Shown here: piece by piece, positions 1 through 16,821 of the stretch | Numbering within the stretch: position 1 is the first letter of the stretch | Layout: each line of letters opens with the position of its first letter | Source of the DNA: a virus | Taxonomy: Duplodnaviria > Heunggongvirae > Uroviricota > Caudoviricetes | Strand: one strand, 5' to 3' | Length of the DNA stretch: 16,821 bases | Virus record (IMG/VR): IMGVR_UViG_2671180758_000023 | The notes under the pieces: model-generated | What the model was told of the DNA's origin: nothing | The model's input: the letters and a program-made list of their open reading frames with translations, nothing else | The model's database searches: none | Translations under genes and position numbers: made by a program

Positions 1-1461
1 ATGAAAAAATTACTGCGTCTTTTTTTCCCGCTCTCACTGCGGGTACGTTTTCTGTTGGCAACGGCTGCGGTAGTACTGGTGCTTTCGCTTGCCTACGGAA
101 TGGTCGCGCTGATCGGTTATAGCGTCAGTTTCGATAAAACTACGTTTCGGCTGTTACGTGGCGAGAGCAATCTGTTCTATACCCTTGCGAAGTGGGAAAA
201 CAATAAGTTGCATGTCGAGTTACCCGAAAATATCGACAAGCAAAGCCCCACCATGACGCTAATTTATGATGAGAACGGGCAGCTTTTATGGGCGCAACGT
301 GACGTGCCCTGGCTGATGAAGATGATCCAGCCTGACTGGCTGAAATCGAATGGTTTTCATGAAATTGAAGCGGATGTTAACGATACCAGCCTCTTGCTGA
401 GTGGAGATCATTCGATACAGCAACAGTTGCAGGAAGTGCGGGAAGATGATGACGACGCGGAGATGACCCACTCGGTGGCAGTAAACGTCTACCCGGCAAC
501 ATCGCGGATGCCAAAATTAACCATTGTGGTGGTGGATACCATTCCGGTGGAGCTAAAAAGTTCCTATATGGTCTGGAGCTGGTTTATCTATGTGCTCTCA
601 GCCAATCTGCTGTTAGTGATCCCGCTGCTGTGGGTCGCCGCCTGGTGGAGTTTACGCCCCATCGAAGCCCTGGCAAAAGAAGTCCGCGAACTGGAAGAAC
701 ATAACCGCGAATTGCTCAATCCAGCCACAACGCGAGAACTGACCAGTCTGGTACGAAACCTGAACCGATTGTTAAAAAGTGAACGCGAACGTTACGACAA
801 ATACCGTACGACGCTCACCGACCTGACCCATAGTCTGAAAACGCCACTGGCGGTGCTGCAAAGTACGCTGCGTTCTCTGCGTAGTGAAAAGATGAGCGTC
901 AGTGATGCTGAGCCGGTAATGCTGGAGCAAATCAGCCGCATTTCACAGCAAATTGGCTACTACCTGCATCGTGCCAGTATGCGCGGCGGGACATTGCTCA
1001 GCCGCGAGCTGCATCCGGTCGCCCCACTGCTGGACAATCTCACCTCAGCGCTGAACAAAGTGTATCAACGCAAAGGGGTCAATATCTCTCTCGATATTTC
1101 GCCAGAGATCAGCTTTGTCGGTGAGCAGAACGATTTTGTCGAGGTGATGGGCAACGTGCTGGATAATGCCTGTAAATATTGCCTCGAGTTTGTCGAAATT
1201 TCTGCAAGGCAAACCGACGAGCATCTCTATATTGTGGTCGAGGATGATGGCCCCGGTATTCCATTAAGCAAGCGAGAGGTCATTTTCGACCGTGGTCAAC
1301 GGGTTGATACTTTACGCCCTGGGCAAGGTGTAGGGCTGGCGGTAGCCCGCGAAATCACCGAGCAATATGAGGGTAAAATCGTCGCCGGAGAGAGCATGCT
1401 GGGCGGTGCGCGGATGGAGGTGATTTTTGGTCGCCAGCATTCTGCGCCGAAAGATGAATAA
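1..1461 (+). CDS. phoQ: Sensor histidine kinase PhoQ (complete, 486 aa)
   Basis: Full-length ORF starting at window base 1. Two N-terminal TM segments, acidic periplasmic patch (EDDDDAEM), HAMP, H-box ([10 protein letters not shown]) and HATPase motifs ([16 protein letters not shown]). Matches E. coli PhoQ as I recall it. Stop TAA at 1459-1461. Confidence 0.95.
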
Positions 1462-2805: not shown

Positions 2806-2835
2806 GCCATCGGGTAAATCAGATGATTAAATCAC

Positions 2836-2900
2836 CAGAATGTAAATTTACATTCTGCCAGCCACCAGCTACCCTCCTCAAAATTGAGGAGCCTTTTTAT
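2836..2900. terminator. Bidirectional terminator region between convergent genes: 22-bp palindrome cagaatgtaaatttacattctg and hairpin ctcctcaaaattgaggag followed by CTTTTTAT
   Basis: Two perfect dyads read directly. The second (2874-2891) is followed by a T-run on the plus strand. The first (2836-2857) is followed by a U-rich tract in the minus-strand direction. Confidence 0.55.
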
Positions 2901-2907
2901 CAACTGG

Positions 2908-3189
2908 TTACCGCCGTAACCGCTCCGGCTTCTTCCAGTGGTACGTGATTTTCTCCTTCTCCCGATACATCTCCACGCGGCGACGGTATGCCAGCAACTC
3001 AAGGACTCTGGTTCGTATATTGCGCATATCCGCATCGTTAAGTTCAATACCATCACGGCGCATCACCTCAGCAACAACACGCGCATAATTTTCGGCGGTC
3101 ACGCTGTCCGGCTGCGTGGCCTGTTCGTCATGCTGCTGGCTGATTCCAGAGACGCGGCGGATTAATCGCAGTATTTCGGCTTCTGTCAT
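2908..3189 (-). CDS. Hypothetical protein (93 aa) immediately downstream of the large terminase
   Basis: ATG at 3189 with GAGGT about 9 nt upstream. 13 nt after the TerL stop. Charged, helical-looking sequence. No family recognised. Confidence 0.5.
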   Translation of the reverse strand: MTEAEILRLIRRVSGISQQHDEQATQPDSVTAENYARVVAEVMRRDGIELNDADMRNIRTRVLELLAYRRRVEMYREKEKITYHWKKPERLRR

Positions 3190-13369: not shown

Positions 13370-13571
13370 AAAGCATCCCCTGAATATTCGTGTTAATCAT
13401 TCCGGCACGTTTTGTGATTTCCTGTAATGATTCCCTTGTGGCGACAATTGCTTCATCTGGTAAGTGGTAATTACACACCACGCGACCTTTATCCACATTG
13501 ACCAGTAGCTGCCCTGTGAATTTCTCACGAAACTGAATGCGGTTAAGGTCAGTAAGTGACAGATTAATCAT
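13359..13571 (-). CDS. Hypothetical protein (70 aa)
   Basis: ORF in the coupled operon; overlaps the upstream gene by 8 nt. No family recognised. Confidence 0.5.
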   Translation of the reverse strand: MINLSLTDLNRIQFREKFTGQLLVNVDKGRVVCNYHLPDEAIVATRESLQEITKRAGMINTNIQGMLYAQ

Positions 13572-13767
13572 GGCGCACCTCCTGACGAATACGGGCAGCG
13601 AATACCATCACGCAGCCAGCCGGAGATTGCTGGCGTGCTTCCTGTTCGCTGGTGGCCTCAATGGTAATCACGCGCGGTTGTGCCGTGCTCAGGGCGATAA
13701 AACGCCAGATGTATTTATTCAGGTTGTGCGAGTCCCGCCCTTGCGGGTGTGTGGTATTATTTCTCAT
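13564..13767 (-). CDS. Small protein (67 aa) resembling Icd-like (host cell division inhibitor-like) proteins of P4-family elements
   Basis: GAGG RBS 5 nt before ATG 13767. Motifs YIWRF, IEATSEQEAR and FAARIRQEV recall P4-family Icd-like proteins (from memory, not searched). First gene after the divergent promoter region. Confidence 0.45.
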   Translation of the reverse strand: MRNNTTHPQGRDSHNLNKYIWRFIALSTAQPRVITIEATSEQEARQQSPAGCVMVFAARIRQEVRHD

Positions 13768-13802
13768 AGCTACCTCGATACTCTCGTTATCGTTGGTGGT
13801 TA

Positions 13803-13837
13803 GAAGCCCCGTTACTGCTCCAACAGTGCGGGGCTTC
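13803..13837 (-). ncRNA. Leader stem-loop (gaagccccg ... cggggcttc, 9-bp stem, 17-nt loop) in the 5' UTR of the early operon
   Basis: Dyad read directly. Lies between the predicted minus-strand promoter and the Icd-like start codon. Not followed by a U-run. Confidence 0.3.
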
Positions 13838-13874
13838 GTCGTTTCAATTGCTGAATTGCATGTATCAGCACTTG

Positions 13875-13929
13875 TGGTATTCACATTACATTTAGGTGAA
13901 TACCATTTCAAGTCTTTTTTGGTATTCAC
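13875..13929. promoter_or_regulatory. Operator array in the divergent switch region: three copies of TGGTATTCAC (two form a 10-11-10 palindrome), overlapping back-to-back promoters
   Basis: Copies at 13875-13884, 13896-13905 (inverted) and 13920-13929. Minus-strand promoter candidate TTGAAA (13906-13911), 17-bp spacer, TAATGT (13883-13888) overlaps copies 1 and 2. Plus-strand -10 candidate TATTAC (13935-13940) lies just after copy 3. Confidence 0.45.
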
Positions 13930-13972
13930 TTTTGTATTACACTGCATCCCGTTATTAATGGGAGGTGCAAAC

Positions 13973-14278
13973 ATGTCCAGGAGTTCTGTTAACAATAAGT
14001 CACAGCAACTGAATGCCAGATTTCCACATGAAGTAGTGAGTGGCATTGAGGCATCCCTACAGCCAGGGGAAACTAAAGCGAATTTTATAGTTACGGCTGT
14101 ACGCGGTGAGATCGCCCGGCGCCAGGCAGAAGGAAGTGGAGAAAATCCCCTGGTTTCTTCGCTCGATGCACTGGCGCAGGTGGAAAAACTCGGAATCAAA
14201 GCCGCCGAGGAGATCGGGCAGCTCGTCACTGTCGCACGTGAAGAACTCCAGCGCCGCAAGACCAAAGAACCAGAGTAA
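13973..14278 (+). CDS. Ribbon-helix-helix-like DNA-binding protein (101 aa); candidate repressor/regulator of the switch
   Basis: Strong RBS GGGAGGTG 5 nt before ATG 13973. N-terminal beta-strand-helix-helix pattern (LNARFPHEVVSGIEASL...ANFIVTAVRGEIARRQ). Divergent from the early operon. Followed by a clear intrinsic terminator. Confidence 0.6.
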   Translation: MSRSSVNNKSQQLNARFPHEVVSGIEASLQPGETKANFIVTAVRGEIARRQAEGSGENPLVSSLDALAQVEKLGIKAAEEIGQLVTVAREELQRRKTKEPE

Positions 14279-14335
14279 TCACCATCAGCGCCGTGGTGTA
14301 AGGTATTACGGCGCATTGCTATGCAGGACAACACA

Positions 14336-14509
14336 ATGACCGATAAAGAATTGACCAAAACATTATCACCGGCACGGAAAAGACGGCGCAGAAAGATAGA
14401 GCATGAATCAGAAAGATTCGCGCCATGTGCTTTTGCCCTTGAGCAATTCCTTAAAGAGTACAGGGAAAAGCGCTCATTGCAGGTATGGCAACGAACTGAA
14501 CCAGACTGA
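14336..14509 (+). CDS. Hypothetical small basic protein (57 aa)
   Basis: AGGA 8 nt before ATG 14336. Basic patch RKRRRRK. Same transcription unit as the RHH gene, ending before the terminator at 14589. Confidence 0.4.
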   Translation: MTDKELTKTLSPARKRRRRKIEHESERFAPCAFALEQFLKEYREKRSLQVWQRTEPD

Positions 14510-14588
14510 TTGCATTGCCCACCAGCCGCAAATGTGGCATTGTTGGCAATGCTCATGCGTTGGGGATAACGTGTAGCTTGTGTCGAGG

Positions 14589-14617
14589 GGCCACCGTAGC
14601 GGGTGGCCTTTGTTTTG
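14589..14617 (+). terminator. Rho-independent terminator (ggccacc-gtagcg-ggtggcc followed by TTTGTTTTG)
   Basis: Perfect 7-bp GC-rich stem, 6-nt loop and U-run, about 80 nt after the stop of the plus-strand operon. Confidence 0.7.
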
Positions 14618-14985
14618 CCCGTTATTCGGCAATTGTGGCGCTTCTCCACATGGTTGATATAATCCCACTGCTCAGATTCATTTTTTGCGCAGTAGGTTAA
14701 TTGTTCACAAAGGCGCTCCGGCAACGGGGCGCTTTTTGTTTTTATTAGTTTGTAGAAACCTGACTCAGAGATAATGCTCATATTCTGATTGCCGTCAGGG
14801 GTGTAAGTTAAATTTACTCCCTTTTTATCATCAAACATCTGCAACGCTCTGGCGTTAACAATATTGGTTTCACTCCCGCCAGTAAGGCCGGAAATAACCG
14901 GAATAATTTCGGCAAAATTTTGCAGATTCTGTTTTTCAGGACGAACGAAGCCCCGCCCTTGTTCGGGAGAATATCCAGTATTCAT
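14618..14985 (-). pseudogene. Bro-N-like antirepressor N-terminal domain, probably a gene remnant (no in-frame stop before running antisense through the plus-strand operon)
   Basis: Residues DDKKGVNLTYTPDGNQNMSIISESGFYKLIKTKSAPLPERL align to the Bro-N pattern (DEDEKGV...GG.Q...IISE.GLY.LI..S..P.A..F). Weak RBS. The frame stays open for 473 codons to 13564, but the middle section is Ser/Cys/Arg-rich antisense of a well-supported plus-strand gene. Confidence 0.3.
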
Positions 14986-15037
14986 GGTTAGATCTCTGTA
15001 TTAGTGGATGGGTGGCGGCTGTGTGCCGCCAGCCTGA

Positions 15038-15226
15038 TTAGTGAACTGCCTCGCAGCTGTCCTTCCATGCCAGAACTTCGGATAAAGACCAGCCAACGGA
15101 ACGACCGCCCAGCTTACGCCGTGATGGGAATTGTCCGGCTTTTTCCAGGCGGTACCGACATGAGCGGCTCAGGCCTGTAAGTTGCTGACATTCTTTTTCA
15201 CGTATAAAGCGATCTGTGCTTAACAC
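15038..15226 (-). CDS. alpA: AlpA-family transcriptional regulator / excisionase-like protein (about 62 aa, GTG start)
   Basis: Motif QLTGLSRSCRYRLEKAGQFPSRRKLGGRSVGWSLSEVLAWK matches the AlpA winged-helix pattern. AAGGGGG RBS 4 nt before GTG at 15226. Confidence 0.8.
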   Translation of the reverse strand: MLSTDRFIREKECQQLTGLSRSCRYRLEKAGQFPSRRKLGGRSVGWSLSEVLAWKDSCEAVH

Positions 15227-15256
15227 AATTCCCCCTTTGTTGTTTCTTAAAGAGTC

Positions 15257-15310
15257 ATTGGGTGGATTATTGGGTTGGGTTGTGTCGGATTGTGTCAGGG
15301 TGTTTGTGGA
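15257..15310. repeat. Degenerate direct repeats with about 10-bp period (ttgggtgg, tgggttgggt, tgtgtcggat, tgtgtcaggg, tgtttgtgga) immediately upstream of alpA
   Basis: Read directly. Lies in the alpA 5' region on the transcribed strand. Function unknown. Confidence 0.4.
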
Positions 15311-15510
15311 ATGGCAAACACTGGCGGCGGTCGTTTTACAGAAGCAGGGGGAATGAGAATAAAAACTCTTTTAATTCATTATGATGCAAAGGCATAAAAT
15401 TTTACTTTTACGCCTTTTTTACATATTTTTAAGAGTGATTCGCCAGTGTATAAAAAAACAGTACACCTATAAAAATCAAATGGTTATTACGATGGCTGAT
15501 TTTTAACCCG

Positions 15511-15570
15511 TTGTTCCATTTTGTTCCTTGTTGTTCGTCGTTGTGTCTCGTTGTTTCACGTTGTCCGCAT
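15511..15570. repeat. Six tandem 10-bp-phased repeats (ttgttccatt ttgttccttg ttgttcgtcg ttgtgtctcg ttgtttcacg ttgtccgcat) just 3' of the integrase gene
   Basis: Read directly; every 10-mer starts with TTGT. Exact helical phasing over 60 bp. Shares the GAACAA/CAACG core with the late-promoter motif (reverse complement). Confidence 0.55.
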
Positions 15571-15591
15571 CCTGAAAAATCGCAAAAAAAA

Positions 15592-16821
15592 TTATATTTC
15601 TCTGGCTATTGGCAATGTGGTTACGTTTTCATGTGTTCCCGCCAGTATCCCTAACCGCTCCGTCCACATATCCAGCGCGTCACGTTTCGCATCCAGATAA
15701 CGGGAATGGTTATAGACTCGTTGCATCCCTGGCATCTGATGACCTGTAAGCTGCTCCACGACGTGAGGATCCACGCCTAAATCGTTCAGCATCGTTGTAA
15801 AGGTGCGCCGGATGTCATGCAGTGACCAGTGAGGGTGTTTTAGCCTCCTGTGCGCTAATCTGCCGTACTGCGACACGCTTGTTTCCTGTTTCAATTCCCC
15901 CAGCAATAAGCCCGTGTGCCTGTTCTGCTCCACCAGCTGCGTGACGAACGGCAGTATTGCTTCCGGTATGGGCCGGAATATTGCCACCTTCGTTTTGCTG
16001 TGTTCTTTCGGCACGGTCCAGAGCATTTCGGTAAAATCCCACTCGCTGATCTCCGATAACCTCAGTTCTACCGTCCGGCATCCGAAAACAATCAGGAGGC
16101 GGATTAGTGCGACGTAGTAAGGGGAAAATATTTTTTTGTCCAGTGCCTGCAATAATTCGCCAAGTTCTTTGGTGCTTAAGACACGCTCGCTTATATCCGG
16201 TTTTTTCCCAACGTCCGCCACACTCATATCATCAAGAACGTTGCTGATTGCATAGCGCCGCCTCCGGCAGAACTTAAGCGCCTGTTTGCACGTCTGTAGC
16301 AAGAATCCGGCAGTAACAGGCGTTCGCTTTGCCACCTGGTCAAAACAGGCCAGCCAGTGCCGTAGCTCGCATTTATCCAGCGGCATAGCACCAATGTGCT
16401 GTATTACGTGATTATTAAGGCGCTTTTTCAGGGCGGCATAATCCACGCGGTTTTCCTTTACGTAAGACTCAAGCCAGTAGGTAAGCGCATCGCCAACCGT
16501 TACGGGCTTTAACGCTTTCTGTACGGTGTAATTCATCTCATGACGTGGATTTTTCCCCTCAGCAAGCCAAGCGCGACACTGTGCCGCTTTTTCCCTGGCA
16601 GCTTTCAGACTCAGATCAGGATAATTTCCCAGCTTAATCCGTTCCGGTCGTGCTCCCCTTCCCGTTCCGGCCCTGTAGGTGAAATACCAGGTTAAAAGGC
16701 CGCTGGTTGAATGCCTGACGCTCAGGTTTCCACCGTCATTAAGAAAAGCTGTTTTTTGGGCGGGTGTGCCGTTGATTTTCCTCAGCTGTGTATCGCTCAG
16801 TTTGTTAAGTGCTCTGCTCAT
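15592..16821 (-). CDS. Tyrosine integrase, P4-type (409 aa); start codon at the window edge
   Basis: N-terminal arm-binding-like domain (LSDTQLRKINGTPAQKTAFLNDGGNLSVRHSTSGLLTWYFTYR) and catalytic motifs (HDIRRTF, C-terminal Y in GMQRVYNHSRY). ATG at 16819-16821. Confidence 0.9.
   Translation of the reverse strand: MSRALNKLSDTQLRKINGTPAQKTAFLNDGGNLSVRHSTSGLLTWYFTYRAGTGRGARPERIKLGNYPDLSLKAAREKAAQCRAWLAEGKNPRHEMNYTVQKALKPVTVGDALTYWLESYVKENRVDYAALKKRLNNHVIQHIGAMPLDKCELRHWLACFDQVAKRTPVTAGFLLQTCKQALKFCRRRRYAISNVLDDMSVADVGKKPDISERVLSTKELGELLQALDKKIFSPYYVALIRLLIVFGCRTVELRLSEISEWDFTEMLWTVPKEHSKTKVAIFRPIPEAILPFVTQLVEQNRHTGLLLGELKQETSVSQYGRLAHRRLKHPHWSLHDIRRTFTTMLNDLGVDPHVVEQLTGHQMPGMQRVYNHSRYLDAKRDALDMWTERLGILAGTHENVTTLPIAREI

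Follow-up and report, generated by a model that had tools for sequence, protein, structure and literature searches.

A candidate repressor cassette lies antisense within a long eta/kil-like reading frame in a capsid-forming phage-inducible chromosomal island

In the satellite phage P4, the eta gene (198 aa, with a match to Pfam Phage_ASH) starts right after vis, a homologue of alpA, and the last 65 aa of its product are those of kil. The eta frame reportedly (Forti et al. 1999) spans the constitutive promoter PLE together with the elements of the CI-RNA immunity. We here describe a related arrangement in a 16,821-nucleotide stretch of DNA (IMG/VR record IMGVR_UViG_2671180758_000023; hereafter the window), in which an island of the phage-inducible chromosomal island (PICI) type carries a small plus-strand cassette inside a minus-strand frame of 473 codons. 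The cassette consists of a ylcI-like gene with features of ribbon-helix-helix (RHH) proteins and of a second small open reading frame (ORF), ORF2. The best explanation that we find is that it constitutes the immunity (maintenance) unit of a P4/PICI-type early operon, placed on the opposite strand inside a read-through ORF of the eta/kil type.

Small RHH repressors acting on divergent promoters beside an antirepressor gene of the Bro/Ant network are known from the immI regions of P22 and P1. P22 immI has the RHH repressors Arc and Mnt, which control ant, and the sar antisense RNA, and P1 has the c4 RNA, icd and ant; translation of the small icd ORF of P1 is needed against Rho termination before ant, and this ORF is the source of the name "Icd-like". 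The RHH-type protein of the window has no detectable relation to Arc or Mnt (the O157 allele gives a marginal Arc match, E 0.04), no antisense RNA family was detected in the window, and the gene order and the antisense embedding differ from those of P22 and P1. Closer in sequence are YlcI and YnfO (DUF3950) of the lambdoid cryptic prophages DLP12 and Qin, whose genes presumably lie near the small terminase gene. They share a 42-residue N-terminal domain with the window protein, but are ~60-77 aa long, lack the long C-terminal helix and do not stand in the context of an alpA-kil switch. Finally, nog1, laoB, asa and pop have been proposed as antisense overlapping genes of E. coli, mainly on the basis of single-strain expression data, and are debated.

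Translation of P4 eta on transcripts from an upstream late promoter prevents Rho-dependent termination (PMC10111431). In Staphylococcus aureus pathogenicity islands and other Gram-positive PICIs, a divergent repressor gene (Stl/Rpr) at the int side faces the replication operon (PMC6092414), an organization that the present cassette resembles, even though its protein belongs to an unrelated family and Stl is inactivated by the binding of a helper-phage protein. In Gram-negative PICIs the published route is activation of alpA: AlpA acts as an activator, and its overexpression suffices to induce EcCICFT073, while the global repressor was described as "unclear" and the control as fundamentally unlike the Stl/Rpr paradigm (PMC6092414). 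The model that we propose below is accordingly one of transcriptional bypass and not of anti-repression.

The 16.8-kb window is a piece of E. coli chromosome that comprises the end of phoQ (1-1461, plus strand) and then a 15-kb island. By Pfam matches the island holds int, alpA, an Icd-like gene, a DUF4222 gene, a RepA-like AAA_25 helicase, SSB, the major capsid protein, prohead protease, portal, TerS and TerL, which is the gene set of capsid-forming PICIs (cf-PICIs) of the EcCIEDL933 type; judged by its genes, it is a cf-PICI integrated beside phoQ. The same phoQ/roxA site is occupied by the prototype PICI EcCICFT073 and by an island of O157:H7 (locus L018), which carries int, alpA and a RepA-type helicase and which we infer to be of the EcCIEDL933 type. 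Both have the same cassette layout. The cassette has alpA on one side and the kil/icd-like gene on the other, not only in the window, EcCICFT073 and the O157:H7 island but also in a helper-embedded PICI (L021) and in relatives from Yersinia, Enterobacter, Serratia, Klebsiella, Xenorhabdus and Photorhabdus.

The initial annotation had described two plus-strand genes with ribosome-binding sites (RBSs) and a terminator, inside a 473-codon minus-strand ORF, as a self-contained unit opposite to the rest of the element. Each of these features was confirmed, and since every island gene called outside the cassette is on the minus strand, the cassette is the sole plus-strand unit identified. The elements of the locus are as follows:

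13973..14278, plus strand: ylcI-like gene (ORF1), ATG to TAA, 101 aa, YlcI/YnfO family with RHH-like features
14336..14509, plus strand: ORF2, ATG to TGA, 57 aa, basic, with an AGGA RBS; an alternative upstream ATG is at 14321
14586..14616, plus strand: T1, intrinsic terminator, GGCCACC/GGTGGCC stem plus UUUGUUUU, ending the ylcI-ORF2 transcript
13564..14985, minus strand: long eta-like ORF, 473 codons from the ATG onwards, with 478 codons free of stops overall
13564..13767, minus strand: nested kil/icd-like ORF, 67 aa, with its own GAGGT RBS; first gene downstream of P_left
15038..15226, minus strand: alpA, 62 aa (Pfam PF05930 Phage_AlpA, E 3e-18); upstream activator gene
13883..13911, minus strand: P_left, predicted sigma-70 promoter TTGAAA-17-TAATGT for the kil/icd-like gene and replication operon; inside the long ORF
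13915..13943, plus strand: P_right, TTTTTT-17-TACACT, weak predicted promoter of ylcI and ORF2; back to back with P_left
13875..13905, no strand: O_L, predicted operator, TGGTATTCAC-N11-GTGAATACCA; covers the spacer and -10 of P_left
13920..13951, no strand: O_R, predicted operator, left arm (13920-13929) a perfect TGGTATTCAC, right arm degenerate; spans the spacer and -10 of P_right

This layout follows P4 vis-eta-kil in that a gene of the AlpA/Vis family is directly followed by a long ORF ending in frame as a Kil/Icd-like peptide of 65-67 aa, with replication genes next. The predicted P_left, which would be the analogue of PLE, is placed inside the long ORF upstream of kil. The layout differs from that of P4 in the nature of the immunity element. 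P4 immunity is exerted by the CI RNA with its seqA/seqC targets, whereas no C4/isrK RNA was detected in the window: an Rfam search of the whole window, C4/isrK included, gave no match at the gathering score, and none with E <=1 between 13300 and 15300 save two chance matches. The candidate immunity element of the window is instead a protein cassette, encoded on the other strand and provided with a promoter, operators and a terminator of its own, and as a consequence the read-through ORF is antisense to real genes. The long ORF also differs in its size and N-terminus, having 473 codons and a Bro-N-like start as compared to the 198 codons and Phage_ASH match of P4 eta.

The ylcI-like gene is preceded by the Shine-Dalgarno sequence GGGAGG, 7 nt upstream of the ATG, and its product is a member of the NCBIfam family NF041551, YlcI_YnfO_N (60.8 bits, where the cutoff is 30; E 1e-16), with aa 9-50 corresponding to profile positions 1-42 of 42. 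The protein aligns end to end with phrog_6522 (E 2e-45) and also matches phrog_949 (E 1e-19). Its homologues, of about 101 aa and 52-100% identical, form 128 clusters across the Enterobacterales (Escherichia, Yersinia, Salmonella, Citrobacter, Enterobacter, Klebsiella, Erwinia, Serratia, Xenorhabdus and Photorhabdus). When they are compared pairwise, the differences at the three codon positions number 763/612/1631, which shows that protein-level selection acts on the plus frame. The N-terminal part of the protein (~aa 1-53) varies between alleles and the long C-terminal helix (aa 59-98) is conserved. In an AlphaFold2 (AF2) model of the monomer (predicted local distance difference test, pLDDT, 73), helices are predicted at residues 19-28, 35-53 and 59-98, the first two being placed as in RHH proteins and preceded by a conserved KSQxxxxRxP segment.

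To score promoters we used our own position weight matrix (PWM) with a background distribution on 12 loci. P_left scores 12.6 in the window (background median 7.9, 99th percentile 13.3) and is found in 12/12 loci scored, with the -35 at -62 and the end of the -10 at -90 relative to the ylcI ATG; the exceptions to this spacing are L010 and L015, where the -10 ends at -88 and the spacer is 15 bp. The -35 is mostly TTGACA or TTGACG across loci and TTGAAA in the window. P_right scores 6.8 in the window; in 9 of the 12 loci, one of the two top-ranking plus-strand candidates is a promoter-like site whose TATAnT -10 ends at -30/-31.

Both predicted promoters are overlaid by candidate operators. O_L is a perfect 10-nt inverted repeat, and equivalent palindromes with allele-specific half-sites occur at the same position in 11 other loci. 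The left arm of O_R forms a direct repeat with that of O_L at a distance of 45 bp, and an operator spacing of 45-46 bp is also seen in L002, L005, L008, L010 and L015; in Yersinia (L023) O_R retains both arms, TGGTATTCG...TGAATACCA. The half-sites change along with the N-terminal allele of the RHH-type protein, as follows (N-terminal segment, half-site, where found):

KSQQLNARFP: TTCAC/GTGAA core; window, Yersinia, Enterobacter asburiae
KSQSLTARIP: GTCTTACAC; E. coli L002, Enterobacter soli L005
KSQL(F/T)TVRVP: GTGTTTC; Serratia, Xenorhabdus
KSRQISIRIP: TGTGATTCA; Klebsiella
KSQALKARVP: GTGGCCCAC; CFT073
KSQTVAARVP: GTGTTGAACAC; L021

Such co-variation between the predicted operators and the N-terminus is the behaviour expected of a module of repressor and operator specificity. 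Together with the positions of the operators on both divergent promoters, it makes that of a switch repressor, one of the options raised at the outset for the RHH-type protein, the best-supported function.

We compared the long minus-strand frame in 20 loci, leaving aside L016, a truncated match. The loci were the window, E. coli L002-L004, the O157:H7 island L018, CFT073 (L020), the helper-embedded PICI L021, Yersinia L023, Enterobacter L005 and L024, Serratia L008 and L014, Klebsiella L015, Xenorhabdus/Photorhabdus L009-L013, Erwinia L007, and L006. The frame is free of stops from the start at the upstream gene through the cassette and promoters into kil in 15 of the 20 loci (window, L002-5, L008, L010, L012, L013, L015, L018, L020, L021, L023, L024), over 285-695 codons. 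In L009 and L011 it is open over the cassette and stops 15 nt short of the next ATG, and with these two included the frame is open in 17/20 loci from eight genera. In every locus the long ORF begins at the stop of the preceding minus-strand gene, either overlapping or adjoining it; this gene codes for AlpA or for a protein of the Bro network that has an ORF6N or AntA domain.

In the window the long ORF starts 52 nt past the alpA stop. It begins with an N-terminal peptide and a partial Bro-N domain, runs antisense through T1, ORF2 and ylcI, all of which lie entirely within it, and then through the promoters and operators and the kil leader, to end in frame as the 67-aa Icd-like peptide. The small Kil/Icd-like ORF is thus the in-frame 3' end of the ORF that follows alpA, as in P4. 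Matches to known families are found only at the two ends. Residues 425-468 correspond to the Icd-like domain NF033153 (E 3e-18), and the nested ORF matches phrog_6196 and phrog_1743; the Prokaryotic Genome Annotation Pipeline (PGAP) annotates Icd-like genes of 65-67 aa in L002-L004, L018 and L020. P4 Kil and the Icd-like peptides give a weak BLASTP match (25% identity, E 0.63), and a relation between them is weakly suggested, mainly by a shared motif judged by eye. At the other end, residues 44-90 align to positions 35-85 of the 96 of Bro-N (PF02498) with 17.1 bits, below the threshold of 25.6, and the first half of the domain is missing in the alignment with relatives. The relatives P0189 and P0218 pass the Bro-N threshold at 54 and 53 bits (E 2e-14), and a bona fide Bro-N domain in their frame implies that translation starts there. 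The long frame has over 1700 counterparts of 385-540 aa among database proteins. These are mosaics, with a full Bro-N domain, a truncated one or no N-terminal domain at all, and with differing middles antisense to RHH genes.

The long product could itself be the functional entity, a fusion of a Bro-N/Ash-type N-terminal domain, a linker and Kil that acts as an antirepressor or regulator on the helper, the cassette having evolved within a tolerant linker. The relatives with full Bro-N or Phage_ASH domains in frame, and a frame that is in phase with kil in most loci, agree with this, as does the fact that Bro-network proteins of satellites can be regulators (PMC10111431). We nevertheless regard such a fusion as unlikely. 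The middle of about 300 aa is the antisense of ylcI, ORF2 and the promoters, and changes wholesale with the RHH/operator allele; the N-terminal domain is swapped or absent, with none in the O157 type and in P0160; Xenorhabdus has a separate Bro-like ORF followed by an ORF of 300-400 aa that lacks any domain; and in L009 and L011 the frame, which ends 15 nt early, is unfused and yet open across the cassette. The turnover of the middle, the domain swaps and the unfused loci fit better with a demand to keep translating than with a demand to keep this particular protein.

A second possibility is that the long frame is an untranslated by-product, open because of conserved regulatory DNA and because of the composition of the plus-strand genes and their codon usage, with expression confined to the short kil and the plus-strand genes. 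For this one can cite PGAP, which often annotates the short Icd-like gene alone or the long one as a pseudogene, and the chances that the antisense frame is open, 85% for ORF2 and 20-44% for ylcI given its protein; the ylcI segment is therefore weak evidence taken alone, which is a point against our interpretation, and what carries the case for a maintained frame is the intergenic segments and the recurrence of the open frame in different alleles. Composition-preserving shuffles of the AT-rich 200-nt promoter segment gave a probability of openness of 0.008-0.023 per allele (~1-2%), yet this segment is open in 8/8 alleles, whose operator sequences are unrelated and whose lengths differ by multiples of three. 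Taken over those parts of the window's minus frame that are not plus-coding, the joint probability of openness is ~3e-7.

Stop counts in all frames, taken in 15 loci over three segments (the RHH antisense, 200 nt upstream and 300 nt downstream), likewise set this frame apart. In the 12 loci with the alpA/kil context the long frame has no stop in the RHH antisense, two in the upstream segment (one each in L009 and L011) and four in the downstream segment (three in L008, one in L010), whereas the other five frames hold 1-14 stops per segment in most cases. Where the alpA/kil context is missing (L006, L007 and L014), the long frame has a normal density of stops, 3-11 in the upstream and downstream segments each. 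Within ylcI, an antisense stop arises where a codon ending in T (or T/C) precedes CAN (or TAN), the wobble positions being shared between the two frames. Such stop-creating wobble bases are found at 0/96 at-risk positions as compared to 23% T elsewhere (Fisher 4e-11; 3e-5 when six clade representatives are used). With the start always coupled to the upstream gene and a real Bro-N domain at the 5' end in relatives, a mere by-product appears very improbable.

We conclude from these comparisons that selection keeps the long frame open and translationally coupled, and that the frame does not represent a decayed Bro-N gene. The suggestion in the initial annotation that the unit had broken a larger Bro-N gene was thus not borne out: the domain is partial in the window and full in relatives, and the frame is maintained by selection across genera, in the manner of P4 eta/kil. 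A chance origin of the arrangement is excluded by the shuffles and by its recurrence in diverged loci. Expression of the 473-codon frame, which had been seen as incompatible with a plus-strand unit, is suggested to be compatible with it, both strands being used.

ORF2 is probably coding. It matches phrog_21027 (E 1.6e-15), and its homologues form 36 clusters restricted to Escherichia and Shigella, with an invariant core ERFAPCxFxL and a basic RKRRRRK stretch; the codon-position differences (112/103/160) give a weak signal. Its model is a two-helix hairpin (pLDDT 72) with no match in the PDB. Identical or near-identical copies lie downstream of three different RHH alleles (CFT073, O157 and L021). 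ORF2 would then be an Escherichia-specific passenger of the repressor operon, co-transcribed with ylcI. Slightly less credible still than an untranslated by-product is a type II toxin-antitoxin (addiction) module, in which an RHH antitoxin and a small basic toxin would stabilise the island: an RHH gene followed by a small gene in one operon, operators suggestive of autoregulation and a weak Pfam match to the antitoxin-type RHH family PSK_trans_fac (E 0.008) speak for it, but ORF2 matches no model of Pfam, NCBIfam or PADLOC, toxin and defence families included, and is confined to Escherichia and Shigella, the RHH gene forms a single-gene operon in Enterobacter soli, Serratia, Xenorhabdus, Photorhabdus, Klebsiella and Yersinia, the association of ORF2 with three unrelated RHH alleles shows no co-evolving pair, and one operator lies on the promoter of the neighbouring kil operon, beyond the pair's own.

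Rather probably, then, the RHH-type protein represses the kil/replication promoter and its own, taking the place of the CI RNA, and the frame is kept open so that ribosomes shield AlpA-driven transcripts. In the quiescent island, P_right would drive synthesis of the RHH-type protein, whose dimers, bridged by the C-terminal helix, would bind O_L and O_R, shutting P_left (kil and the replication genes) and autoregulating P_right, as a protein counterpart of the P4 CI RNA. When a helper phage turns on alpA, leftward transcription from the alpA promoter would run through the whole cassette, crossing ~1.4 kb with two reversed terminators and two promoters before it reaches kil. The long ORF, coupled to the upstream gene, would let ribosomes trail the RNA polymerase, and Rho termination would be blocked as it is for P4 eta. 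Kil and the replication genes could then be expressed regardless of the repressor, and convergent transcription might also silence ylcI and commit the switch. Such a bypass of the repressor would explain why the 2018 study called the global repressor "unclear" (PMC6092414), and it fits the published induction, which needs AlpA and in which no inactivation of a repressor was noticed.

Several points weigh against this interpretation. That the window protein belongs to the RHH (Arc/MetJ/CopG) DNA-binding proteins is suggested, but not proven, by sub-threshold matches, by its pattern of helices and by the name of its family: the N-terminal strand is not formed in the AF2 monomer model, the Pfam match to the RHH-type family PSK_trans_fac is below its cutoff (E 0.008), a Foldseek search of the model against the PDB gave no match with E <3, and a PDB profile search with the sequence returned chance matches only. 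In the window O_R has one good arm only, and P_right is a weak prediction, a consensus promoter scan of the region having found no promoter. The enrichment of C over G in the minus-strand RNA is patchy, and we gave it no weight as a signal for Rho utilization (rut) sites. As for the published phenotype, EcCICFT073 was induced with AlpA alone and no repressor was reported (PMC6092414), and the RHH-type protein may be dispensable for it. Two reports on P. aeruginosa (PMC9371919, PMC7969949) further indicate that AlpA-family proteins can be processive antiterminators; such antitermination could make ribosome coupling unnecessary, or be an alternative or additional route of read-through. We infer the mechanism throughout.

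In its most general form the proposal is tentative, and we hold it somewhat less firmly than the mechanism for the window. It states that Gram-negative PICIs, including EcCICFT073 and those of the EcCIEDL933 type, possess a master repressor, an allele-variable RHH protein whose matching operators define immunity groups; that the repressor is encoded in a dual-coding cassette of ~0.5-0.8 kb; and that the antisense frame is kept across the Enterobacterales for the act of translation and not for its amino-acid sequence, with ribosomes shielding the AlpA-driven transcript from Rho while it overruns and silences the repressor gene.

The components of this arrangement are known, namely RHH-type repressors with operators, the eta/kil nesting of P4 and the "Bro zone" of PICIs (PMC10111431). 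An antisense protein immunity cassette in a read-through ORF is not described in PMC6092414, PMC10111431, the cf-PICI preprint, PMC11773190 or PMC13612085, an earlier description elsewhere being possible. Likewise, no RHH repressor of Gram-negative PICIs is described in PMC6092414, PMC13612085 or the cf-PICI literature that we found, and YlcI/YnfO is listed merely as an accessory gene in PMC13612085. The combination is conserved from E. coli to Photorhabdus, including in prototypes that have been used experimentally. What the finding suggests is a repressor switch that has been overlooked in Gram-negative PICIs, together with a sense/antisense gene overlap that has unusually good support. If correct, a repressor cassette in the prototype islands changes the picture of Gram-negative PICI control and explains immunity and allele diversity among co-resident satellites. 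The long frame would be one of the cleaner comparative cases of an antisense overlapping frame in bacteria, with a testable mechanism, and bears on the long-running debate whether antisense overlaps are ever functional. Like nog1, laoB, asa and pop, it is a long ORF wholly antisense to annotated genes with coinciding wobble positions; unlike theirs, its support is comparative, the frame being kept across genera and unrelated alleles, and has the precedent of P4.

Other observations concern the RNA elements of the locus. A plus-strand terminator is found 3' of the RHH gene in every related locus. In the window, the T1 hairpin (about -17 kcal/mol) stands directly before a T-run, and in L021 its stem is kept and its loop changed. 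Further along the plus strand (14633-14745), a near-perfect extended -10 promoter (TGaTATAAT, 14655-14663) lies ~45 nt upstream of a second and very strong intrinsic terminator, T2 (14707-14745, -20.5 kcal/mol, z-score -5.35). Both are conserved in CFT073 and L021, and the predicted RNA of ~75 nt between them, which is antisense to the 5' third of the long ORF and has no Rfam family match, might act on the eta-like ORF as a regulatory antisense RNA. On the minus strand, the leader of kil is also structured:

13776..13874, minus strand: kil mRNA leader with three hairpins, at 13845-13874, 13803-13837 and, next to the Shine-Dalgarno sequence, 13776-13792

This leader folds with -32 kcal/mol (z-score -4.7), and an RNAalifold consensus of nine diverged loci keeps two of the hairpins (17 pairs, six with compensatory changes), including the small one that abuts or encloses the kil Shine-Dalgarno sequence. 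The leader, which matches no known RNA family, might regulate kil translation in cis or give rise to a processed RNA; its position is that at which P4 has CI and seqA.

Among the small ORFs of the region, a 57-aa ORF at 14403-14576 (plus strand) was dismissed as a gene, having no family match. An upstream extension of ylcI to 208-231 codons (plus strand, 13586/13652 to 14278), which at 231 codons is antisense to kil, is open in the window only; we treated it as chance because of the 2-4 stops found in the other loci. In Enterobacter asburiae L024 the place of ORF2 is taken by two small, basic and unrelated ORFs, 49 and 40 aa long (2816-3091, plus strand), a hint that a small basic protein 3' of the repressor is perhaps a recurring, non-homologous feature. 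In the O157:H7 island, ylcI gives way to a gene for an Arc-like RHH protein of 57 aa (L018 2813-2995, plus strand; MSTPLEKRSPPYQMRLPEDF...) with two GGTAATTACC palindromes, one of them over its own start codon. The C-terminal tail of this protein, ELQQRGIEPKG, is also present in Klebsiella YlcI-like proteins, and gene and palindromes sit inside an open frame of 333 codons, a non-orthologous replacement. In Erwinia psidii (L007 4229-4684, minus strand), one of the loci in which the long frame is interrupted, the upstream gene is a phage Q-type antiterminator and not alpA/Bro, which anecdotally fits read-through being secured by other means.

RefSeq/PGAP annotation of this region is inconsistent (L001, L002, L018, L020 and database proteins), which constitutes an annotation problem in its own right. 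The same frame is called an Icd-like gene of 65-67 aa, of 161 aa (then overlapping the start of ylcI) or of 385-540 aa, or a pseudogene with a "missing C-terminus" despite an intact frame, and ylcI or ORF2 is omitted in some genomes.

A blastn search with the cassette against the phage collection gave no match. Relative to EcCICFT073, the window is 99.1% identical over 14248-15700 (alpA 99%) and 97% identical over 13577-13809, and between these blocks, over the operators and most of ylcI (~13810-14247), it carries a different allele, with breakpoints near 13809 and 14248. The island appears as a mosaic when 13569-15700 is compared with L020 and L018: the side with alpA, Bro-N and ORF2 is EcCICFT073-like, and the operators and most of ylcI represent a third allele. 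The O157:H7 island, whose own replication genes are likewise of the RepA-helicase type, shares 98-99% identity with the window over two segments that flank the cassette, 13400-13605 and 14281-14527. Of the two breakpoints, one separates the DNA-binding part of ylcI from its C-terminal helix and the other lies in the leader hairpin.

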